From positions 14,793 to 78,792 of the forward strand of contig CALKCX010000003.1 of assembly GCA_938083015.1 (NCBI GenBank): a stretch of DNA of 64,000 bases, given 5' to 3'. Below the pieces are notes generated by a model that saw only the letters and a program-made list of their open reading frames with translations, was not told where the DNA came from and made no database searches. The position numbers and the translations under genes are program-made. Numbering within the stretch: the stretch's first letter is position 1; the number at the start of each line of letters is the position of its first letter. Below are positions 9,110 through 30,106 of this stretch, one piece after another. This DNA is from an uncultured Candidatus Micrarchaeota archaeon (GTDB lineage: Archaea; Micrarchaeota; Micrarchaeia; Anstonellales; J096).

Positions 9110-11341
9110 ATGTTTGAAGATATAGAAATAAAATGGCAGAAGATATGGAATGAGAGAAAAAAGACATATGATTTAAATAAACCAATAATAGCTATAGATA
9201 CGCCCCCACCTTTTACATCTGGAACATTGCATATGGGCCATATATTAAGCTATTCTTATATAGACTTTATTGCCCGATATTTGATGTTAAAAGGAAATCA
9301 AGTGTTTTATCCACAAGGCTGGGATGCTCAAGGATTTCCAACTGAAATGAAGATAGAGGCAAAGTATGGTAGAGATCTTCCAAGAGAGGAGTTTAGACAG
9401 AGATGTATACAATGGAGTTATGAGATGATAGATAAAATGAAAGAGCAAATGAAGAGAATGGGGTATATGATAGATTGGGGGCACGAGTATATAACAATGG
9501 TCCCAGAATATCATGAAAAAGTACAAAAATCAATAATAGAAATGTGGAGGCAAGGTGAAATATATAGAGATAATCATCCTGTTTTATGGTGCCCCCATTG
9601 TAGATCAGCTATAGCTAAAGCAGAATTAGAAGATAAAGAAATGGATTCCGTATTGTACGATATAAATTTTGGAAATGTAACCATATCTACTACCAGGCCA
9701 GAGTTATTACATGCTTGTGTTGCTATAGCTGTTCATCCCGACGATCCTAGATATAAAAGTATAATTGGTAAAAATGCAAAATTACCAATTTATGATAGAG
9801 AAGTAAAGATAATTGCTGATCAAGATGTGTCGCGTGATTTTGGTACTGGGGCAGTGATGATATGTACATATGGTGATTATCAAGATCTAATATGGCAGAA
9901 AAGACATAATCTGGAAGTTATAGAAGCTATAGATAAAGAAGGGCGATTGAAAAATAGTAAATACGATGGAATGACTATTGATAAGGCCAGAGAAGCTATT
10001 GTAAAAGATCTAAAAAGTATAGGTGCTATTGAAAGAGAAAGACATTATAAGAAAATCGTAAAAGTACATGATAGATGTAAAAATCCAGTAGAATTGATGT
10101 ATTCTTATGAATGGTTTGCTTCTTTAAAGAAACATAAAGATGAATTGATAGATATTGCTAAAATGATAAACTGGTATCCGGAATTCGGCATATATCATTA
10201 TATTGATTGGTTAAACAATTTAGATTGGGATTGGATAATTAGTAGAGATAGAATATTCGGAACACCTATTCCGTTTTATGTATGCGAATATTGTAATAAT
10301 ATAGAACCTGCAGATGAATTACCTTTTTATCCTGAAAAGGCAAAACCTAAGATGTGTAAACAATGTGGAAATCAAATGAAACCAGAGATAAAAGTATTAG
10401 ATGTATGGGTAGATTCTAGTATTACTCCATTAATAGTTTCAAAGTATTACGAAAATATCGATTTTCACAATAAAGTCTTTCCTAATTTTATAAGAATACA
10501 AGGTCTAGAAATAGTTAGAACATGGGCATTGTATACAATATACAGAGTATGGAAATTAACAGGTCAAATACCTTGGAAAAACATATTATTGAATGGTAAC
10601 GTATTGGCCCCGGATGGAAAGAAGATGAGTAAAAGCTTAGGTAATGTCATATCTCCAGATGATTTACTTAAAGAATATCCTGTAGATGCTTTAAGACAAT
10701 GGGCAGCAATGAGTGGGGCATTGGCAAAAGATAGACCATTTTCATATGAAGACATAAAATATGCTAAAGCTTTCTTAATCAAATATTGGAATGCTTCTAA
10801 ATATGTATTATCTAAACTTAAACCAGTAACAGATGTAAAATTAAGAAAAGTCGATAGATGGATATTACATAGATTATCTGAACTTATTGAAAAGGTCCAA
10901 AAATCTATGGATAATTATCAATTTAGAGAAGCTATTGTTAGTTTACAACAATTCTATTGGAATGAATTCTGCGATTATTATTTAGAATATACGAAATGGA
11001 GATTCAACAATGAAGTTGATGGAGCTATCTATACTTTAAAGAAAGTCCAAGAAGAGTTTTCGAAGATGTTCTCTATATTCGCCCCACATCTTGCATATGA
11101 AGTATATTGGCAGATATTTGGAAAAGAAATTGAAGATTGGCCTAACTTCAAATTCTCAGATCCAGAAGCAGTTAAACAAGTTGAAATTTTTAATCAAGAG
11201 GTATCTAAAGTAAGAACGTATAAAATATCTAATAGATTATCTATGAAGGCCGAATTAGATAAATGGAAATTAGAAACTAATCTTGATCCAGAGTTAAAAG
11301 AAGAACTTAAACAAGTAATGCACATTAAGGAATTAATCTAG
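9110..11341 (+). CDS. valS: Class Ia aminoacyl-tRNA synthetase with a CP1 editing domain. Most likely valyl-tRNA synthetase.
   Basis: HIGH motif PPPFTSGTLHMGH (ValRS-like PPPxxTGxLHMGH). TTRPELLHACVAIAVHPDD at the CP1 start. Editing block FGTGAVMICTYGDYQD...RHNL. KMSKS as GKKMSKSLGN. At 743 aa it is unusually short for ValRS. IleRS cannot be fully excluded. Confidence 0.6.
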   Translation: MFEDIEIKWQKIWNERKKTYDLNKPIIAIDTPPPFTSGTLHMGHILSYSYIDFIARYLMLKGNQVFYPQGWDAQGFPTEMKIEAKYGRDLPREEFRQRCIQWSYEMIDKMKEQMKRMGYMIDWGHEYITMVPEYHEKVQKSIIEMWRQGEIYRDNHPVLWCPHCRSAIAKAELEDKEMDSVLYDINFGNVTISTTRPELLHACVAIAVHPDDPRYKSIIGKNAKLPIYDREVKIIADQDVSRDFGTGAVMICTYGDYQDLIWQKRHNLEVIEAIDKEGRLKNSKYDGMTIDKAREAIVKDLKSIGAIERERHYKKIVKVHDRCKNPVELMYSYEWFASLKKHKDELIDIAKMINWYPEFGIYHYIDWLNNLDWDWIISRDRIFGTPIPFYVCEYCNNIEPADELPFYPEKAKPKMCKQCGNQMKPEIKVLDVWVDSSITPLIVSKYYENIDFHNKVFPNFIRIQGLEIVRTWALYTIYRVWKLTGQIPWKNILLNGNVLAPDGKKMSKSLGNVISPDDLLKEYPVDALRQWAAMSGALAKDRPFSYEDIKYAKAFLIKYWNASKYVLSKLKPVTDVKLRKVDRWILHRLSELIEKVQKSMDNYQFREAIVSLQQFYWNEFCDYYLEYTKWRFNNEVDGAIYTLKKVQEEFSKMFSIFAPHLAYEVYWQIFGKEIEDWPNFKFSDPEAVKQVEIFNQEVSKVRTYKISNRLSMKAELDKWKLETNLDPELKEELKQVMHIKELI

Positions 11342-15116: not shown

Positions 15117-15209
15117 GAGTTAAATACATATAAAAAAGTTTAAAAATAACTGACCAATTTTATTTTTGTAAACATATATGTTTAAAAAAAGTTAATCATA
15201 ATATAAAAT

Positions 15210-16817
15210 ATGAATGTTGTAGTTGAAGCAGAATTAGATAAAAGATTAGAAGAACTTAGATTAAACAATCCTGAAACTGAGCGCAAAGTAAAAATAGCTT
15301 TAAGACAATTTCTTACACAGACAGATACAACAATAACACTTAACGTTAATCCTTACAATGCAAACATGATAAGAGAATGGCTAATGAAACATTATCCTGA
15401 AATATCTGTAACTACTGTTAACAAAAGACAAAATGGTACTGAAGATATAGTTTTGAGAAAAGGGCAAAAAATGCCCATGTTTATAGACCAATCTATTCTT
15501 AGTATAGATCAATTAGTAAATTCGTTAAATAGCAATGGTGTGGTAAAAAATAGCGTAAAAGATAATCTATATAGATTAGTAAAAGGCAATACTTATAGTG
15601 TGACATTGAATTTAAATAGCGATAACGCTAATAAGGTGAAACAATGGGCAGAAGAATATGGTTATGAAGTTTCACTACGAACTGCTCAGAATGGTTTGGT
15701 AGATATAACTATAAGAAGACATAAGAAAGTATCTTCTTTAGACAGACCACAATCTAATCAAAACTTAAATACAGGTTTACCTAAACATCTTGATCATAAT
15801 TTCTATCGTGGTATAAAACATGTATATGAGGCATTGAAAGGTACTTCTTTCTTTGATTATTATAGCACGTTATCTGATGAAAAGAAAGAATTGTTTTTAT
15901 CATTCATGTGGGGTGTATATATGAGAAGTGTAAACGAAACACAAAAATCAAATCCAGAACTGTTTGGACAAATAGGCTCTGTAAGAACTTTATTTTCAAA
16001 ATTAAATAAACACAATATAATATCGGAATTTGAAGCTAGATTAGAAAGAGCAGAAAGACAGACAAAAATGGCAATAGAAATCCTTGAACAAAAATTCTCA
16101 AAAGAAAATAAATCGTTGAAAAACTTCTTAGGTTCAAATTATAAAGAATTTGAAAAAGCACTAAAATATATTTTTATGGAATGGAAATTTGATGATAATA
16201 CTATTAATTCTATATTGAACAGTATATCTTATCAAACTATTGATAAATTATATAAAGCTTTAATTGACTTTAGAGCAAAAAACCATAGACATTCTCCAGG
16301 TAAAGATGTATCTAATCAAGATCTAGCAGAGATAAGCTTATCAACAATTCTATTTAGTAAAATGTTTGGAGTAGATTCAGAATTAATCTTGGCCATTATA
16401 GGACAAGAATCTAATTTTAGAAAACAAGCATGGAATGATGGAAATATAGGCATGACTCAACAAAGTGGGCAAGGTTGGAACATGTATGTATTCGGTTCAA
16501 GATACCCAGGTATGTTAGAAAATTATATGAAAGCTAGATTTAAAAGAGCCGGATGGCAAGGAAATCCTGATTATCAATCACCTTTAGTAAATAGAACTTT
16601 ATTAGCAAATCAAAATATAACAATGCAAATATATACTGGTGTAATAACATTGGTAGGTAAAGCTATTGAAAAATATGGTACAAATACAGATCTGTCTAAC
16701 TTAGATAATAGAAAAGATGTTGTATATCAAATTGCCAGGGGATACAATGGAAGCAAATTAGCAAATAGTTATGCTTCTGCAGTAGTTAGTAGTCCACTTT
16801 GGAATTTAGATTTGTGA
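15210..16817 (+). CDS. Protein with two N-terminal about 45-aa tandem repeats and a C-terminal lytic transglycosylase (SLT / lysozyme-like) domain.
   Basis: SLT motifs LILAIIGQESNFRKQAWNDGNIGMTQQ (ES...G-L/M-xQ), NQNITMQIYTGV and QIARGYNGSKLA (AYNxG). Repeats TITLNVNPYNANMIREWLMKHYPEISVTTVNKRQNG and YSVTLNLNSDNANKVKQWAEEYGYEVSLRTAQNG. No obvious signal peptide. Confidence 0.6.
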   Translation: MNVVVEAELDKRLEELRLNNPETERKVKIALRQFLTQTDTTITLNVNPYNANMIREWLMKHYPEISVTTVNKRQNGTEDIVLRKGQKMPMFIDQSILSIDQLVNSLNSNGVVKNSVKDNLYRLVKGNTYSVTLNLNSDNANKVKQWAEEYGYEVSLRTAQNGLVDITIRRHKKVSSLDRPQSNQNLNTGLPKHLDHNFYRGIKHVYEALKGTSFFDYYSTLSDEKKELFLSFMWGVYMRSVNETQKSNPELFGQIGSVRTLFSKLNKHNIISEFEARLERAERQTKMAIEILEQKFSKENKSLKNFLGSNYKEFEKALKYIFMEWKFDDNTINSILNSISYQTIDKLYKALIDFRAKNHRHSPGKDVSNQDLAEISLSTILFSKMFGVDSELILAIIGQESNFRKQAWNDGNIGMTQQSGQGWNMYVFGSRYPGMLENYMKARFKRAGWQGNPDYQSPLVNRTLLANQNITMQIYTGVITLVGKAIEKYGTNTDLSNLDNRKDVVYQIARGYNGSKLANSYASAVVSSPLWNLDL

Positions 16818-18086
16818 TATACTAAGTCTCTGAACTCGTATTATATTGCTAAATATTCTATAATATATTATGTTAACTAGCATTATTAATAAAAACATCC
16901 CAGTTAGACCTATGTATTGTAAAACAACATATCCTATTTTGATAGATACTAAAGTAGCTACTCGAATTATAAGTAAATAGGTATTTGATAAGTTTTCTCT
17001 AGTATTTTCATCGTCTACATCTAATAATAGCTTTCTAATATATATAGGTCCAAACATGTTTACTGCGATTATTAAAATAGCAATTGCCAATATATAAGCT
17101 CCGAGAAAGGCCAATATAGATGAAACTGTAGTTAATACAAATCCAATACCAAGTAATCTATTATGTTCTTGTTCATCCATTAATCTACCAGATAGAAATA
17201 AGGATAATATAGATAACAAAGACGTAATTGTAATTATAGTAAACATCTCTGAAGAATCCAATCCTATTATATTGATGTATATCCATCCTGATAGATTTAT
17301 CGGTATATAAAAACCTAATACTGAAAATATAGATAGACCTAACAATAGATTAGATTTATTGTTAAGAATTACAGTTAATCTATCAAAAGTCTTCCTATTT
17401 TTAATAACATAGATTAGTAATACCAACAATATGGCCGCGAATATATAGATGTTTAAATTTAATATAAAATATATGAAAGAGGCGATTGCTAAAACTATCA
17501 ATGAAATTCTTCTTATATCAGATTTAGTAAATCTATATGTTCTAAGACTATCGTCGTCAACGTATTTATAGACCAATATTAAAATTGCTAAAAGAGCAAT
17601 AATTGTTATAAACGATATTATAATAAACATATCTAAATCTATATACAGTATAATCACAGGTATCAATATAGTTACCAATGACCATATTATTTCAACGTTA
17701 TTTAAATTTTTACCAGAGTTTTTTCTATCTAATGCCGTTAACATTGATGAAAGAAGAGGGAATAATACTGAAAAAGCAGCTCCTTCTGCTAATGCCCCTA
17801 AGTATATAGCTTCAAAGTTTTTATTCATTATTCCATAGACAAGAAGAATAATAGCGACTATGAAACTAGATAAGCTTATTATTATAATTCTCTTCTTTCC
17901 TAAGATCTTTCGAATATATATTAATATAGGCTGTAATATAACTGCTGCAGAGAAAAATAAAATGTTAAACTCTATTATTAAATCGTGCTTTTCAATAGTT
18001 TTAGATAGATATAGAATATAATTGTTTACAAGGACAAAATAGAATGCTATAAATAGATTGATTAATACGATTAATAAGAACAACAT
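16806..18086 (-). CDS. Polytopic integral membrane protein (about 12 TM). Possibly an MFS-type transporter.
   Basis: 426 aa, almost entirely hydrophobic helices, with a short charged loop at mid-protein. No catalytic motif recognised. Confidence 0.35.
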   Translation of the reverse strand: MLFLLIVLINLFIAFYFVLVNNYILYLSKTIEKHDLIIEFNILFFSAAVILQPILIYIRKILGKKRIIIISLSSFIVAIILLVYGIMNKNFEAIYLGALAEGAAFSVLFPLLSSMLTALDRKNSGKNLNNVEIIWSLVTILIPVIILYIDLDMFIIISFITIIALLAILILVYKYVDDDSLRTYRFTKSDIRRISLIVLAIASFIYFILNLNIYIFAAILLVLLIYVIKNRKTFDRLTVILNNKSNLLLGLSIFSVLGFYIPINLSGWIYINIIGLDSSEMFTIITITSLLSILSLFLSGRLMDEQEHNRLLGIGFVLTTVSSILAFLGAYILAIAILIIAVNMFGPIYIRKLLLDVDDENTRENLSNTYLLIIRVATLVSIKIGYVVLQYIGLTGMFLLIMLVNIIYYRIFSNIIRVQRLSISQI

Positions 18087-22282: not shown

Positions 22283-23431
22283 TTATTCTGCGTCTCCTCC
22301 ATCACCAAAATCAACACTTACATCAGAAGTATCAAAATGATATTCATGTTTAGTCTCTTCATCTTCTTTATATAATCGTTTTCTTAGCACATAGGATTGT
22401 AACAAATTAATTAAATTTTCAGCAGTCAATATAGCTCTTGATCTGTCTGCTTGACCATTAACAACTAACTCATGGGGAAGAGATTTAAGAATACGCGTTA
22501 ATAAATCGAATACTTCGCTATAGTTTTCATTATCTGAATGTATAAAAATGTAGACATTGAAATTATTTTCAAAAGGTATGTTTAAATTACTTCCAATAAC
22601 CGATGTTGAATTGAAAACAAACATCTTAGCTTTAATATCTCTGCCTTCTAAATCCCAATCTAATGTAAGAGATTTTAAATGTGAAGTATCAAGAAGATGT
22701 ATAGCTATACTAGTAAGCCCCATCTCTCCTAATTTATCTTCTAGATTACGAATAGTTTCATAGAATTCTTGCTGTTTTTCCAAAATCCTTATACTTCTTA
22801 TAATATCTGAATGTGCCAATAATACTATTATAGCTGGTATATGTTTAGGTGTTAATCTTCTAATATCTGGTGGCCATTCGTTTAAAAAATCTCTAACATC
22901 TGATAAATCATCTTCCGTATCATAAGCTTGTTCAAAAATATTTTTTAGATTATTAAGCGTAGATGGCAATTCTATATGTATAGAAGAAGGTCTTCTAACT
23001 TTTTCAATATTTGAATTGCCTTTAATTCCGCGTCCATCCACGATTTTCCCATCTTTGTCCTTATCTTCAAGTTCAAACATTAGGCCTATTACCATTCTAC
23101 TTATTATAGGATATATATCTTTGCCTTTAGAAACGTATATTGGATTTGACGTATACAATGAAGCTTTTCTCAATATTCCAGGAATGTTTTTAATATGTAC
23201 AGGATATTCTAAAAATAACATATAATACGGTGGTAATAGAAATTGATTAGATGATTTAATAGCAATAGGTGAATATGTATATAAATCTCTCTGAGGTGGT
23301 ATACCTGGAAATCCTATTAAGACAGGAAGAGAGCGTTCATCGGCATATCTAACTCGAGTATTTGGTTCTATTTTAATAATAGGTCTTTCCTTATATTGTC
23401 GAACATTCTTATCAATAATTATCTCATGCAT
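22283..23431 (-). CDS. Conserved hypothetical protein (382 aa) with an acidic C-terminal tail.
   Basis: Long ORF with good codon structure, directly downstream of rpoD on the same strand with a 31-nt gap. No recognisable motif. Ends DFGDGGDAE. Confidence 0.3.
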   Translation of the reverse strand: MHEIIIDKNVRQYKERPIIKIEPNTRVRYADERSLPVLIGFPGIPPQRDLYTYSPIAIKSSNQFLLPPYYMLFLEYPVHIKNIPGILRKASLYTSNPIYVSKGKDIYPIISRMVIGLMFELEDKDKDGKIVDGRGIKGNSNIEKVRRPSSIHIELPSTLNNLKNIFEQAYDTEDDLSDVRDFLNEWPPDIRRLTPKHIPAIIVLLAHSDIIRSIRILEKQQEFYETIRNLEDKLGEMGLTSIAIHLLDTSHLKSLTLDWDLEGRDIKAKMFVFNSTSVIGSNLNIPFENNFNVYIFIHSDNENYSEVFDLLTRILKSLPHELVVNGQADRSRAILTAENLINLLQSYVLRKRLYKEDEETKHEYHFDTSDVSVDFGDGGDAE

Positions 23432-25507: not shown

Positions 25508-26566
25508 TTATATGTTAAGACCACCAAATAAAGTATTGATTAACATCATAAATATGTATAATAATACATAAGCTATTAGTAATGTGATAAGAAGATTTCT
25601 ATAAAACATTGCCTTATTATTTTCTGAACTAGATATGATCTTGGATGTAAATATCGATGTTACAAATATGGACAGAATGGCAAAATATAGGAAAGCTTCT
25701 TTATCAATACTAGGAAGACCTATTTGAATATTTATAGGTAATATTCCTGCGTATATGTTTATATCTTTAAGTTGTGAAAATGCGTTATATAAAACATCTA
25801 ATAATTTCATAGATATTGCATATAATAAAGGCATACCGAATACCGTTGCTATTAATATAAACATTCTATATGTAGTAAGCGTAGTAGATATCTCGTCTTT
25901 ATAATTCTGTATTTCTCTTATATCTAATGCTAGTTTTTCAATTATATCAGCTAATCTAGCACCAGTCTTTATACCTTCTACTATTATTACAAATGTTCTA
26001 CGTATTAATACAGAATTAAAATCTTCACTTAATCTAAGAATTGTCTTATCTAAAGGAACCCCCGAATAATATTCTTTCATCCTTGCCCTTATCTTCTGAG
26101 AAAACAGTCCGTATTCTTCTTTGGCCGCATCTAAAATAGCTCTATCTACGATATTACCAGATCTTATTCCTGCAGCTAAGTTCATAAGAAATTCAGGTAA
26201 TACTCTTTCAGACTCTCTTCTTATCTTATCTTCTCTTATATCTATTATTCCATTTATTATTAACACGATTATTATATAAATCAATACACCGTATAGTAAT
26301 GTACCTGTAAATACTCTAATAATATCTTTTGATATTGTAAAATTATCCAATACTATATCGCGTAATTTTAGCTTTTCAAATACACCGCCTATATCGTTAT
26401 AAGATATCAAATAACCAACTAGGAAAGATAGTAAAAACATTATTACTAAAAGGCCCCCTAAAAATTCTCCAGTAATTCTCATCTCTGCTAATTTTAATCT
26501 TCTATCTAGATTTTCTATGAATTTTCTAGACAGAATTCTACTAAACACCTCAAACATCTTGATCAC
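25508..26566 (-). CDS. Type II secretion system F-domain membrane protein (TadC/FlaJ-like), the second of two.
   Basis: 352 aa. N-terminal TM helices, a cytoplasmic T2SSF-type helical domain (LPEFLMNLAAGIRSGN...GVPLDKTILRL), then C-terminal TM helices. Confidence 0.6.
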   Translation of the reverse strand: MIKMFEVFSRILSRKFIENLDRRLKLAEMRITGEFLGGLLVIMFLLSFLVGYLISYNDIGGVFEKLKLRDIVLDNFTISKDIIRVFTGTLLYGVLIYIIIVLIINGIIDIREDKIRRESERVLPEFLMNLAAGIRSGNIVDRAILDAAKEEYGLFSQKIRARMKEYYSGVPLDKTILRLSEDFNSVLIRRTFVIIVEGIKTGARLADIIEKLALDIREIQNYKDEISTTLTTYRMFILIATVFGMPLLYAISMKLLDVLYNAFSQLKDINIYAGILPINIQIGLPSIDKEAFLYFAILSIFVTSIFTSKIISSSENNKAMFYRNLLITLLIAYVLLYIFMMLINTLFGGLNI

Positions 26567-27373
26567 CTATTCAAATAGACTATATCTAGGTTTAGAATAA
26601 GTAATAAAGCGATAGAATAGGTATTGAATAAGAGTTACTAACATTAACATTAGGAAAAGATGAATTACATTAAAATCTGCAGCTCTACCTGTAAATGACA
26701 ATATTATCAACAATATAGGTAAAGACAATGTAGGCAAGATAATAGCTATTAACATATACATAAGCATTAGGGGATTTAATCTAAAACCATATTTTCTATA
26801 TTCGTTCATCTTTTCATTTGTAATCTGTTTCTCTAATTCTTCTAATATCTTAGCTAAATCTGCACCAGAATCTATTGCACTGGCTATCTGTAATAATACG
26901 AATTTCATATAATTACTGGGTGTTTGAGCAGCTTCATCTCTCAATGCCTTACTAGCAGGTACTCCTGATGCAATCTGTTTTGCCAATTTCTCCATTACTT
27001 CACTAGCTTTACCATATCCTTTAGATGTAAGTAAAAAGATGTTATAACTAGGTACACCTGCTCTAAGTAATACCACCATGTGTTTTAACAAAAATCCTAA
27101 TTCATATTCTATATTTTTCCTATATATTTCAATTTTCACATCTACCTCTTTTAAATTTATCATATACCACATTAAAAGGTTCAAAAGATAAATTAAGAAT
27201 ATTGTTATAATTAAAATGTAAAAATCTAGATTAATATTGGAAAGCAATATTAGAATTGTTATTACTACTGTGGATAACAAAGCATAGAATAAAGCTAATA
27301 TAAATGCCCGTCTTACATATTCTGAGACAGACATATTATATGATACTATTTTAAGTTTTTCAGCTAGCTGCAT
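26567..27373 (-). CDS. Type II secretion system F-domain membrane protein (TadB/FlaJ-like), the first of two.
   Basis: 268 aa. TM helices flank a cytoplasmic domain with LLKHMVVLLRAGVPSYNIF...ASKALRDEA, characteristic of T2SSF/TadB/FlaJ. Confidence 0.65.
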   Translation of the reverse strand: MQLAEKLKIVSYNMSVSEYVRRAFILALFYALLSTVVITILILLSNINLDFYILIITIFLIYLLNLLMWYMINLKEVDVKIEIYRKNIEYELGFLLKHMVVLLRAGVPSYNIFLLTSKGYGKASEVMEKLAKQIASGVPASKALRDEAAQTPSNYMKFVLLQIASAIDSGADLAKILEELEKQITNEKMNEYRKYGFRLNPLMLMYMLIAIILPTLSLPILLIILSFTGRAADFNVIHLFLMLMLVTLIQYLFYRFITYSKPRYSLFE

Positions 27374-27394
27374 ATTGTTTATTTATATAAATAG

Positions 27395-28201
27395 TTATTT
27401 ATAATTATCATCAAGATAAGCTTTGATGATATGTTCTGGTACATTCTTCTGTTTCAAGTAATAATACTTTGCCTTTAACAATGCCTCTTTTTTATCTATC
27501 TGTTTTAGAGAATATTTCCTAAATGTTTCAGGATCGTTTTTTATAAGATACAAAAACAACGAGGCCTCTGGTATTTTCTCCATATTTTCAATGATATTTT
27601 TATACATATCAACTTCAACGTTTTCTTTAACATTTTCTTTAACAACATTGCCTAATCTTGCCAACATCTCTGATCTAATTTTTTCATCCATAATTCCTTT
27701 CTGTTCTAAAATATAATCGATTATAATTTTTGGATCTTCAGTCTTACTATATGTTTTTAGCATCTTAATCCTGTTTATTAGAATTTGCTTTTTACTATTA
27801 CTAGTTTCCATTCTATATAGATTGGATAGACGAGTTAATTCCTTACTTAGATTTGTAACTATCTGTCGGTATTCTTCAATTAATTCATCTATATTATAAG
27901 TCTTCTTCTCTTCTTTTACTTCCATTTCTTCTATCTTCTTTTCTAACTCTTTCCATTCGTCAATCTCTGTAGTTTTTTCTATAACAGGTTGTTGAATAGG
28001 TTCTTGTATAGATTTTGTAATCGATCCCAATGAAACTAATCTCCAAAAATAGCTTAGATCCGATTCAAATATATCTTCTTCATATATCTTAATAGTCGAT
28101 ATTTGTATAGGTTGATGGGCAACTATTACCTGGCCTTTTTGGAATATATCACTCATCGAATTCCCACCTTCTGTTATTAGCTGCAAATTCAAGTATTTCA
28201 T
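27395..28201 (-). CDS. Hypothetical soluble Lys/Glu-rich (coiled-coil-prone) protein inside the pilus-like operon.
   Basis: 268-aa ORF overlapping the 3' end of the ATPase gene. The real start is probably the internal Met (MSDIFQKGQ...). No recognisable domain. Confidence 0.3.
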   Translation of the reverse strand: MKYLNLQLITEGGNSMSDIFQKGQVIVAHQPIQISTIKIYEEDIFESDLSYFWRLVSLGSITKSIQEPIQQPVIEKTTEIDEWKELEKKIEEMEVKEEKKTYNIDELIEEYRQIVTNLSKELTRLSNLYRMETSNSKKQILINRIKMLKTYSKTEDPKIIIDYILEQKGIMDEKIRSEMLARLGNVVKENVKENVEVDMYKNIIENMEKIPEASLFLYLIKNDPETFRKYSLKQIDKKEALLKAKYYYLKQKNVPEHIIKAYLDDNYK

Positions 28202-29624
28202 CTGGATTACGATAGTATCGCGATACTAAGTATCCTACTTTATCTACATCATAATATTCATTAGCTACCATCCAATTCAATACATGTTCTTTTTCTTTTA
28301 TATCTAACATTACCTCTTCTTCTTTCCAACCTAAATATATCTCAAATAGTTCATAAGTCTTCTTCATTCTACGTTTTTCATAATTCTTCTTCTTAAAATT
28401 ATACCTATATACTATATTTACCTCTCCATTATCTAATACTTCTGCAATTTCAAATGTTTTTCTCTCATTAGTTCGTCTATTTCTAACTTGTACCATAATT
28501 ATACCAAGACTATCTAGCATCTCTTTAGGTAAATTAATAGGCGGAGTTGTTAATCGATTTACAGCTTGTACTGAACTATCGGCGTGTATAGTAGAATATA
28601 CACTATGACCAGTTCTCATAGCTTCAAACATTATCTCAGCTTCTTTCTGTTTTCTTACTTCTCCAACTAATATTCTATCAGGTCTCATTCTAAGACTATT
28701 TACTAATAAATCTAACATACTTATTTCTCCTTTTCCTTCTGGATTTGGCTGTCTTACAACCATAGGTACCCATTGTAAATACTTAGGTAATGTCAATTCT
28801 CGAGTATCCTCTATCGAGATTATTCTCTGATTAGCTGGTATGAATTCTGCTATACTGTTTAATACAGATGTTTTTCCAGATCCAGTGCCCCCTGCTATTA
28901 ATATAGATATCTCGTTTTGTACATAACTCCATATCAAAGCAGCTATTTCAGAACTTAGAGTATTACTTGATATCAATCTAGTTATAGACCACGGGTTTTT
29001 AGAGAATTTTCTAATAGTTATAGTATTACCTGATGTTGAAATAGGATAAAGTGTGGCGTTTACTCTACTACCATCTGGTAATGTAGCATCTAATAATGGG
29101 TTAAGTATGTTTATCTGTCTTCCTATTCTTCTAGCAATTGTAGAAGCATAATTAAAAATATCTTCATCTTTTCTAATTACTAAATTGCTTTTACACCATC
29201 CTATTTTCTTATGATAGACCCATATAGGTTGCCCAGGACCATTAACGCAGATCTCTTCTATGTTTTCATCATAACTTATCAATTCTAATTCTCCTAATCC
29301 TATTGTAGTTAATAATAAATATTCTGTTAGAATATTCAAAGATCTTTGATCTATATCTTTGAAGTTTTCTTTTAAAATTTTAATAGATACCTCTTTATAT
29401 ACTTCTCTAACATATTCATATTTATTTGGATCTAATAAATCTCGAATGTCAATGTTGGCTTTTTGTATTAAATCGTATCTTATTTTATTATCTATTATTA
29501 TTTTCGTTGGATCGCTTAATGACGGAATTTTAACTTCGTATATTGGTACAAATTCTTCATCTTTATGATATATATTAACGTTTATTGGAAAATCTTGATT
29601 ACCGATAGTATACTGTAAATTCAT
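28149..29624 (-). CDS. FlaI/TadA/VirB11-family secretion ATPase (type IV pilus / archaellum-type assembly ATPase).
   Basis: 491 aa. FlaI-like N-terminal domain. Walker A ILIAGGTGSGKTS. Asp box and Walker B RISIEDTRELTLP...RPDRILVGEVR. His box FEAMRTGHSVYSTIHADS. Confidence 0.85.
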   Translation of the reverse strand: MNLQYTIGNQDFPINVNIYHKDEEFVPIYEVKIPSLSDPTKIIIDNKIRYDLIQKANIDIRDLLDPNKYEYVREVYKEVSIKILKENFKDIDQRSLNILTEYLLLTTIGLGELELISYDENIEEICVNGPGQPIWVYHKKIGWCKSNLVIRKDEDIFNYASTIARRIGRQINILNPLLDATLPDGSRVNATLYPISTSGNTITIRKFSKNPWSITRLISSNTLSSEIAALIWSYVQNEISILIAGGTGSGKTSVLNSIAEFIPANQRIISIEDTRELTLPKYLQWVPMVVRQPNPEGKGEISMLDLLVNSLRMRPDRILVGEVRKQKEAEIMFEAMRTGHSVYSTIHADSSVQAVNRLTTPPINLPKEMLDSLGIIMVQVRNRRTNERKTFEIAEVLDNGEVNIVYRYNFKKKNYEKRRMKKTYELFEIYLGWKEEEVMLDIKEKEHVLNWMVANEYYDVDKVGYLVSRYYRNPDEILEFAANNRRWEFDE

Positions 29625-30106
29625 CTTTCTATCACGATATTCAATACACCGTTTCTAATATCCTTACTGATAATTTTTCCATTCTTAAAATCAGAATTTA
29701 AAGGTACTCTTATATTCATTCCATCTCCTGTTATTACAAGTTTACCATCTTCTATCTTTACATCAACGTTTTTTGAATTATTCTCTAATAATACGGCTAT
29801 CTTTAATTTATCTCCTTCTCTACTTACATCAAACATAGGTAGATTTGCCTGTTCTTCTCTATCAAAATCGCTTTCTTCTTTAACTCGCTCTACAATTTTA
29901 ACAGGTTCAATACCAAACATCCTAAGCATTTCCATCTGCATCTGATGAATCTTTCTAAACATGTTTTCAAATTCTTTTTCAAATACTTCAGTATTATTAT
30001 CAAAATCATCTATATACTCTATTCTAGGAGGTTTATCTCCTTCTTTTATAATTCTAAAACCAAATCTTCTAATCTTGAATTTTTTCTCATCGTCCATGTT
30101 AATCAC
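29621..30106 (-). CDS. Small Hsp20/alpha-crystallin-like protein, translationally coupled (ATGA overlap) to the secretion ATPase.
   Basis: 161 aa. The C-terminal half PMFDVSREGDKLKIAVLL...VKIEDGKLVITGD...SKDIRNGVLNIVIER resembles the alpha-crystallin domain. The annotated start is a GTG. An in-frame ATG lies 3 codons downstream. Confidence 0.4.
   Translation of the reverse strand: MINMDDEKKFKIRRFGFRIIKEGDKPPRIEYIDDFDNNTEVFEKEFENMFRKIHQMQMEMLRMFGIEPVKIVERVKEESDFDREEQANLPMFDVSREGDKLKIAVLLENNSKNVDVKIEDGKLVITGDGMNIRVPLNSDFKNGKIISKDIRNGVLNIVIER

Follow-up and report, generated by a model that had tools for sequence, protein, structure and literature searches.

A Micrarchaeota protein of a rare family with a divergent SLT/GH23 lysozyme-like domain and a putative role in glycan cleavage

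Main finding

We analysed a 64,000-nucleotide stretch of the genome of an uncultured Candidatus Micrarchaeota archaeon, a very small member of DPANN of the symbiotic type (Anstonellales; J096; assembly GCA_938083015.1, contig CALKCX010000003.1, positions 14,793 to 78,792 of the forward strand), hereafter the window, and found that the C-terminus of a 535-aa protein encoded at window positions 15210..16817 (+), the SLT-like protein, is a genuine, strongly diverged SLT/GH23 domain that has kept its catalytic residues. The gene is vertically inherited and under purifying selection, being neither a viral relic nor a recent acquisition. Judging from its sequence and structure models, we favour with modest confidence that the product is an active, chromosomally inherited and very divergent GH23/SLT glycan cleaver used at the cell surface or at the interface with a partner organism. 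The gene and the elements of its catalytic domain are as follows.

15210..16817, + strand: complete open reading frame (ORF) with two N-terminal modules, a helical region and the SLT-like domain; ORF read directly, orthologues of 545-555 aa with 33-59% identity
16302..16814, + strand: divergent SLT/GH23 lysozyme-like catalytic domain, residues 365-535; AlphaFold2 (AF2) domain model, Foldseek, PDB profile search and hhalign
16407..16409, + strand: codon of Glu400, predicted catalytic acid/base of motif I (QESNF), at the C-terminal end of helix 390-401; codon checked
16449..16460, + strand: motif II, G414-M-T-Q417, equivalent of GLMQ; aligned to the GLMQ of MltC, MltE and classical SLTs
16614..16661, + strand: segment N469-I...G477...K484, putative equivalent of the NIxxGxxYL helix by pattern and fold alignment
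16743..16751, + strand: motif III, Y512-N513-G514, equivalent of AYNxG; codons checked
16770..16772, + strand: Tyr521, candidate C-terminal catalytic-site Tyr (motif IV) of family 1 lytic transglycosylases; at least 90% conserved

Sequence evidence for the SLT/GH23 domain

The ORF starts with ATG, encodes 535 aa plus a stop and is intact; a frameshift, which would have spoken against an earlier sequence-only reading of the same DNA, is absent. An in-frame stop at 15207 lies directly upstream and makes a longer N-terminus impossible, and no second copy of the gene was found in the window. The strings on which that reading had based its assignment are all present in the translation (in AIIGQESNF...GMTQQ, NITMQIYTGV and GYNGSKLANSY).

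The top three Pfam matches of the protein were SLT, SLT_2 and SLT_4, all below threshold, and they were the only ones to recur across the family; PF01464 was matched individually by 11 of the 26 core members (best E 4e-5). When a 36-sequence profile of the family was searched against PDB, significant E-values were obtained for lytic transglycosylases only (MltC, 7e-8; MltE, 1e-5), and a stricter profile built from 26 core C-terminal domains again placed lytic transglycosylases alone on top (MltC, 7.6e-4). With both profiles, all PDB matches at E below ~0.5 were lytic transglycosylases. Comparison by hhalign with six classical SLT domains gave 96.6% probability and an E-value of 5e-10 over 43 columns. 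The SLT-like protein had no match in NCBIfam, and a phmmer search of PDB with the single sequence returned none either.

The family is rare. Close homologues of the SLT-like protein numbered three among 5.8 billion proteins, and a protein search with a 27-sequence profile returned the same four proteins and nothing further; a search for contigs encoding the window's own protein gave no record. Among 1.84 billion representative proteins there were 34 matches at E <= 1e-3, the weakest of which were ordinary SLT proteins with signal peptides and motifs of the GLMQ and (A)YNxG type. Identity to the SLT-like protein across the core set was 18-59%, and named database copies of the protein were always labelled 'hypothetical protein'.

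Conservation of the catalytic residues

Glu400, which is followed by Ser401, was invariant in 36/36 and 26/26 sequences of the two alignments and aligned with the Glu of the Glu-Ser pair of MltC and MltE, in agreement with the sequence-only reading, which had placed the catalytic Glu here. This is the position that is Gln in inactive Glu-to-Gln mutant PDB entries, and the mutant chains scored ~5-8 bits lower against the family profiles (~5 with the stricter one). In motif II, Gln417 was invariant and Gly414 at least 90% conserved, while the middle residues deviate (M/L/V, then T). Lys484 was invariant in the family. Motif III (G-Y512-N513-G514-S) had Tyr512 and Asn513 invariant and Gly514 at least 90% conserved; its pairing by HMMER with the AYNGG of MltC was obtained only in a non-significant second segment. 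Tyr521 is a candidate counterpart of MltE Tyr192 and Slt70 Tyr587. The invariant columns, which hold only Glu, Gln, Lys, Tyr and Asn, coincide with the motif set of family 1 lytic transglycosylases, and such strict conservation of the catalytic Glu together with the motif set argues for catalysis as the predicted activity.

Structure of the catalytic domain

An AF2 model of residues 360-535, built from the 26-sequence alignment, reached a predicted local distance difference test score (pLDDT) of 90.9 and a predicted template modelling score (pTM) of 0.89. In this model residues 365-535 adopt the SLT-type helical, two-lobe lysozyme-like fold as a divergent member. When the model was searched against PDB with Foldseek, 50/50 of the top matches were lysozyme-like, nearly all of them GH23 (MltE, MltC, phiKZ gp144, Slt, MltF, goose-type lysozymes and a GH23 chitinase) plus two of the glucosaminidase type; the best matches had E ~1e-2 and a probability of ~1.0, with template modelling scores (TM) of 0.36-0.47. 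Against BFVD, the top 50 were all LT_GEWL/SLT-type phage proteins or unnamed entries, with TM up to 0.56.

Inheritance of the gene and the viral question

The sequence-only reading had considered that the gene might be a relic of an integrated virus, which is contradicted by its composition, neighbourhood and relatives. Its GC content (0.295), GC content at third codon positions (GC3, 0.177) and codon-usage distance (0.167) lie within the gene distribution of the window, whose means are 0.295, 0.187±0.019 and 0.153±0.041, respectively. The gene order SecD/SecF (or FtsZ), SLT-like gene, major facilitator superfamily (MFS) transporter, HAD, aEF-2, eRF1 is kept in three other contigs with orthologues only 33-59% identical. 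The named sources of these orthologues are 'Candidatus Anstonellales archaeon' or 'Candidatus Micrarchaeota archaeon', and further metagenome-assembled genomes of Micrarchaeota carry the gene. Other archaeal family members also lie amid housekeeping genes (aIF2/PFOR, CDC48/topoisomerase and a ribosomal protein operon). A related-locus search with a narrow alignment returned the genomes of two representative species, a close locus from a metagenome and five matches to a short motif, with nothing viral among them. A pattern scan of IMG/VR found no relatives, the match in PHROGs was negligible (E 0.002), and viral structures were no closer to the domain model than cellular ones when BFVD was compared with PDB. 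A prophage relic or a recent transfer is rejected because of the typical composition, the kept synteny, the absence of a relative in IMG/VR and the negligible PHROGs match. Since Nitrospiraceae bacteria carry relatives of the gene, an old transfer between bacteria and archaea, in either direction, is likely.

The exact string AIIGQESN also occurs in small classical SLT proteins of ~200 aa with an N-terminal membrane helix and the motifs GLMQI and AYNAG, encoded at the loci L007-L011. The gene of L010 (2870-3466) lies in a phage-like bacterial region with a LexA-like repressor, recombination genes, SSB and HNH; L007, L008, L009 and L011 encode proteins near-identical to it, and none of these are members of the archaeal family.

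N-terminal modules, helical region and export

Upstream of the catalytic domain, the protein consists of a duplicated module, a linker and a helical region.

15261..15473, + strand: N-terminal module copy 1, residues 18-88; helix, strand, helix, strand, strand in the model, and family alignment
15528..15731, + strand: N-terminal module copy 2, residues 107-174, with the signature LNLNxxNAxKVxxWA...NGxVDI; repeat score, model and alignment
15723..15773, + strand: low-confidence linker, probably disordered, residues 172-188; pLDDT < 50, length varying among orthologues
15783..16280, + strand: all-helical middle region, residues 192-357; pLDDT mostly 80-96, with a dip to 60-68 at residues 241-260

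The two tandem N-terminal repeats proposed from sequence are real and match neither LysM, SPOR nor PASTA, as had been suggested, but the unit is ~70 aa long and not ~45 aa. Residues 18-88 and 107-174 aligned with a BLOSUM62 local score of 97 against 27.1±5.2 for shuffled sequences (maximum 54 in 2000 shuffles), and the duplication was also evident in three orthologues under the same scoring. Many family members without a transmembrane segment have one copy of the unit and this subgroup has two; the linker overlaps the end of copy 2 by three residues. A Pfam search of the module, covering LysM, SPOR, PASTA and other families, found no family that matched or recurred, and a PDB profile search with it returned mostly proteins designed de novo, no natural protein reaching significance. 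Its structural matches (SirA/TusA-like, R3H, KH) were weak. The helical middle region is specific to the family and had no Pfam or PDB sequence match. It is conserved in distant members, whose profile matches start at positions 95-320.

We judged P0027, a 501-aa protein encoded outside the window, to be unrelated and rejected its match to the N-terminal module as spurious. Its N-terminus is hydrophobic and resembles a signal peptide, and it carries ~4 near-identical internal repeats of ~70 aa; it had matched the module part of the profile in five stretches (E 2e-6).

A signal peptide, Tat motif, pilin-like N-terminus, lipobox and transmembrane segment were all looked for in the SLT-like protein and none was found. 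Its N-terminus is acidic and hydrophilic, which bears out the earlier statement that a signal peptide is lacking, and the maximum 19-residue Kyte-Doolittle mean, 1.56, falls inside the catalytic domain. Most archaeal family members likewise lack a signal peptide and a transmembrane segment. In the relatives that have a membrane helix, the flanking Lys/Arg counts favour an inside location of the N-terminal side in 5/7 and are tied in 2/7, so the catalytic part is predicted to be outside in 5/7. To these belongs the subgroup of P0023/P0043 (L015 7001-9253), together with P0012, P0014 and P0017, with a HEAT-repeat N-terminus, one membrane helix and the helical plus SLT-like core. The P0023/P0043 cluster comes from a Nitrospiraceae bacterium and is annotated only as 'HEAT repeat domain-containing protein'. 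The archaeal member P0011 also has a membrane helix ahead of the core.

Proposed function and rival explanations

As an active glycan cleaver, the SLT-like protein would use Glu400, at the end of its helix, to protonate the glycosidic oxygen of a β-1,4-linked N-acetyl-amino-sugar chain bound in the groove. The 2-acetamido group would assist cleavage, which would be completed either by the C6-hydroxyl (the lytic transglycosylase outcome) or by water (the lysozyme outcome). An envelope or cell-wall glycan would be cut locally, on the outer side of the cell where it touches a partner organism. The ancestral and presumably most likely substrate would be bacterial murein. Export would be non-classical or partner-dependent because there is no Sec, Tat or pilin-type signal, and the N-terminal tandem module would be the best, though speculative, candidate for targeting or docking or for unconventional export.

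Several observations weigh against this proposal. The sequence-only reading had spoken of a full SLT motif series, and of this the placement in the lysozyme-like superfamily with a retained Glu stands by the family profiles and the domain model, but PF01464 scores only 17.7 bits with the full protein and 19.0 bits with the domain alone, against a gathering threshold of 21.3. That alignment covers only profile positions 8-42 of 117 (the segment from Glu to GLMQ), and sequence-profile similarity to classical SLTs is limited to ~40 columns spanning motifs I-II. Structural similarity is moderate (Foldseek E ~1e-2; TM 0.36-0.47 in PDB and <= 0.56 in BFVD). With a full-length AF2 model (pLDDT 79), Foldseek returned no SLT structure in the top 50, its matches being weak and confined to the N-terminal modules (WhiA N-domain, KH, SirA-like, R3H). 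With neither signal peptide, transmembrane segment nor lipobox, the access of the protein to any wall is unexplained. Murein is not an assured substrate either: the hosts of cultivated Micrarchaeota, as described in the references cited in PMC12892359, are wall-less or S-layer archaea that lack murein.

This lack of murein in the known hosts points to an alternative that we regard as distinctly less probable, in which the same fold and chemistry act on an N-acetyl-hexosamine glycan other than murein, belonging to an archaeal partner or to the organism's own envelope, such as the chitobiose cores of S-layer N-glycans, chitin-like polymers or a glycocalyx. The protein would then open or remodel the cell-cell contact or serve to harvest amino sugars, and the MFS transporter might import the products. 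Chito-oligosaccharides can be accommodated by the GH23 fold, and the structural matches include a GH23 chitinase (3w6e; target-normalised TM, TMt, 0.52) and chitopentaose-bound MltE (4hjy). The genome that has kept the gene is compact: coding sequence makes up at least 92% of the window. The convergent MFS gene, which overlaps it at the 3' end and is orthologous (42% identity) and syntenic in Anstonellales, gives a weak hint of product uptake. Against this, the motifs are those of murein lytic transglycosylases, and the MFS protein, for which NCBIfam gave no match, is not related to the one beside the Nitrospiraceae homologue and is absent beside other archaeal members and from L003. The missing export signals, here and in most archaeal members, would instead suit a protein that stays in the cytoplasm or is not catalytic, its SLT-like domain binding glycans or ligands, serving as a structural part or scaffold, or processing imported muropeptides or oligosaccharides; housekeeping neighbourhoods everywhere and the weak resemblance of the N-terminal module to small cytoplasmic α/β domains (SirA/TusA-like, R3H) are consistent with it. 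We consider this unlikely, for the catalytic Glu and the entire motif set are strictly conserved and the SLT-like domain is predicted to be outside in the membrane-helix relatives; we know of no established cytoplasmic SLT enzyme.

Lytic transglycosylases that lack signal peptides are a typical feature of phage virions, and a virus or mobile-element relic, or a recent horizontal acquisition, for example a virion- or secretion-system-associated lysin, would also account for the BFVD matches being all phage LT_GEWL proteins, for the AIIGQESN string common to prophage SLTs (L007-L011) and for the Nitrospiraceae relatives, which point to an old inter-domain transfer. Such an origin is very unlikely, and a recent viral or horizontal event is largely refuted, given the typical composition and codon usage, the flanks of SecDF, MFS, HAD, aEF-2 and eRF1, synteny kept despite the divergence of the orthologues, and the search results in IMG/VR, PHROGs and viral structures given above. 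Least credible is a chance resemblance, in which an unrelated helical domain happens to carry SLT-like short motifs. The sub-threshold Pfam matches, the short profile alignments and the TM-scores below 0.5 against PDB would allow it, but three SLT Pfam models were matched, the PDB profile matches at E below ~0.5 are all lytic transglycosylases, Foldseek returned 50/50 in each of two libraries, and the invariant residues fall exactly on the SLT motifs.

Neighbouring genes and the tandem paralogue

The gene lies in a compact archaeal setting; the window has ~30% GC and its gene content (MCM, aEF-2, aRF1, fibrillarin, SecDF) is archaeal. Among Anstonellales are lineages of very low GC whose genomes are the smallest known in archaea (PMC12892359), and the composition and compactness of the window fit that description. 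As the sequence-only reading had noted, the gene is divergent from secF (PF02355; 14169..15116, minus strand), and the spacer between them is 93 bp long.

15117..15209, no strand: divergent A/T-rich spacer of 93 bp between secF and the SLT-like gene; sequence read directly
15181-15190, ~20-29 nt before the ATG: TTTAAAAAAA, putative archaeal TATA-like box, such strings being common in spacers so A/T-rich

In the two closest relatives the same interval holds an extra gene of 217-222 aa (L002 2531-3184, -; L003 2533-3201, -) that neither Pfam nor NCBIfam matches. Its absence from the window fits ongoing gene loss.

On the other side, the convergent MFS transporter gene (16806-18086, -) overlaps the 3' end of the SLT-like gene by 12 nt. 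The pairing is also found in L002, and in L001 the MFS gene follows the paralogue described below. No NCBIfam model, AmpG-type or otherwise, matched the MFS protein of the window. A convergent MFS gene also lies 3' of the Nitrospiraceae homologue (L015 9307-10503) and is not detectably related to that of the window. The idea that the MFS protein is an AmpG-like muropeptide permease in a conserved cassette was set aside on the missing NCBIfam match and the lack of conservation in the wider family, and is only a weak lead.

In a sister lineage of Anstonellales/Micrarchaeota, the gene is followed 3' by a tandem paralogue of 538 aa that is ~30% identical to it, P0007-like and different in its N-terminus; its hhalign alignment spans the helical middle region. 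The paralogue is absent from the window, L002 and L003, and was located as follows.

L001: 5984-7600
L006: 9624-11237
L005: ~10001-11245
L004: 9630-10568 and 10565-11242

The L004 copy is split by a frameshift at residue 313 and is otherwise 99.6-100% identical to that of L001; the frameshift is either an assembly error or early decay.

A pilus-like operon had been described as lying near the gene. A type IV pilus or archaellum-like cluster does exist at 25508-29624 (-), with a T2SSE ATPase (28152-29624) and two T2SSF genes (25511-26566 and 26570-27373), but it is 8.7 kb away and the link is positional only. The MFS, HAD, aEF-2 and eRF1 genes, an unannotated ORF and several unscanned short ORFs lie between them. 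Within or beside the cluster are unannotated ORFs of 268 aa (27395-28201) and 161 aa (29621-30106); no pilin gene was identified. An ORF of 382 aa (22283-23431, -) separates eRF1 from the minus-strand genes downstream and has no match in Pfam or NCBIfam; at the corresponding place L002 and L003 have unannotated ORFs (391 aa and 581 aa, respectively), followed by RpoD-like, S11 and S4 genes.

Comparison with known systems

The best profile and structural matches of the SLT-like protein are the family 1 lytic transglycosylases (E. coli MltE/EmtA, MltC and Slt70; PF01464). Both have the helical lysozyme-like fold with Glu-Ser at a helix end, and G-x-x-Q, a putative N-I...G equivalent, Y-N-G and a candidate C-terminal Tyr follow in the same order. 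The SLT-like protein differs from these enzymes in falling below the Pfam threshold, in having G(M/L/V)TQQ(S/T) instead of GLMQ, a longer stretch from motif II to the N-I...G segment and the family-specific invariant Lys484, and in its archaeal host and the lack of a signal peptide or lipobox. In place of their U and L domains or DUF3393 it has a new helical region and two undescribed α/β modules.

Phage virion lytic transglycosylases (phiKZ gp144; 3bkh, query-normalised TM, TMq, 0.46) and goose-type lysozymes (goose egg-white lysozyme, GEWL; 153l, TMq 0.44) have the same fold. The phage virion enzymes also lack signal peptides, whereas the SLT-like gene has neither phage context nor viral sequence homologues. 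Goose-type lysozymes have, besides the catalytic Glu, conserved Asp residues downstream (D86/D97 in GEWL), and in the SLT-like family alignment Asp is conserved neither in the stretch from motif I to motif II nor further on. The Nitrospiraceae HEAT-repeat proteins P0023/P0043 have the same helical plus SLT-like core (profile E 4e-10 over positions 192-545) with the same invariant residues, but HEAT repeats and one membrane helix replace the two α/β modules, and their context is bacterial.

The statement in the sequence-only reading that SLT domains are not expected in an archaeon is half true, since they are documented in DPANN, including three Micrarchaeota genomes (PMC8204110, PMC5864196). 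As recounted in PMC8204110, SLT-domain proteins have been reported in DPANN since 2013, earlier in three DPANN genomes. They include large extracellular proteins of Woesearchaeota/Pacearchaeota (fam00969) of up to 3,000 aa (PMC8204110) and, from three genomes of Micrarchaeota, a 'lytic murein transglycosylase' (Chen et al. 2018, PMC5864196), and bacterial walls have been proposed as their target (PMC8204110, PMC5864196). The SLT-like protein has in common with them the SLT-type domain and a proposed action on the walls of other organisms. It differs from these proteins, which are predicted to be extracellular or Sec-exported and are recognised by standard annotation, in being a 535-aa 'hypothetical' protein of an apparently separate rare family with its own architecture and no export signal, and it is set apart from fam00969, as described in PMC8204110, by size, export signal and lineage (Micrarchaeota). 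It has been demonstrated that peptidoglycan hydrolases of archaea can kill bacteria, and a recognised signal peptide is present in only 32% of archaeal homologues of such enzymes (PMC12352652).

Implications for DPANN biology

What is new here is the architecture, the strong divergence below annotation thresholds and the lack of an export signal; as SLT domains in DPANN were already known, the finding refines the existing picture and does not overturn it. How DPANN archaea attach to, open and feed on partner cells is largely unknown, and few conserved candidate enzymes are at hand. The SLT-like gene is a concrete candidate, with a probably active glycan-cleaving domain that standard annotation had missed. 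A murein substrate would lend support to the view of some Micrarchaeota as attackers of bacteria or as living on them, and an archaeal glycan as substrate would extend known GH23 chemistry. It is conceivable, though doubtful at present, that the rare family, with its ~30 representatives, is a DPANN host-interaction enzyme, that is, a murein-type lytic transglycosylase that was exchanged with bacteria in the distant past, retargeted to the envelope glycans of an archaeal partner (or to a bacterial host) and delivered without Sec or Tat by way of its N-terminal module. Were this so, GH23 would gain its first enzyme acting on an archaeal envelope, together with a new export or docking module, and the retention of the gene with its synteny by archaea whose genomes rank among the most compact would be explained.

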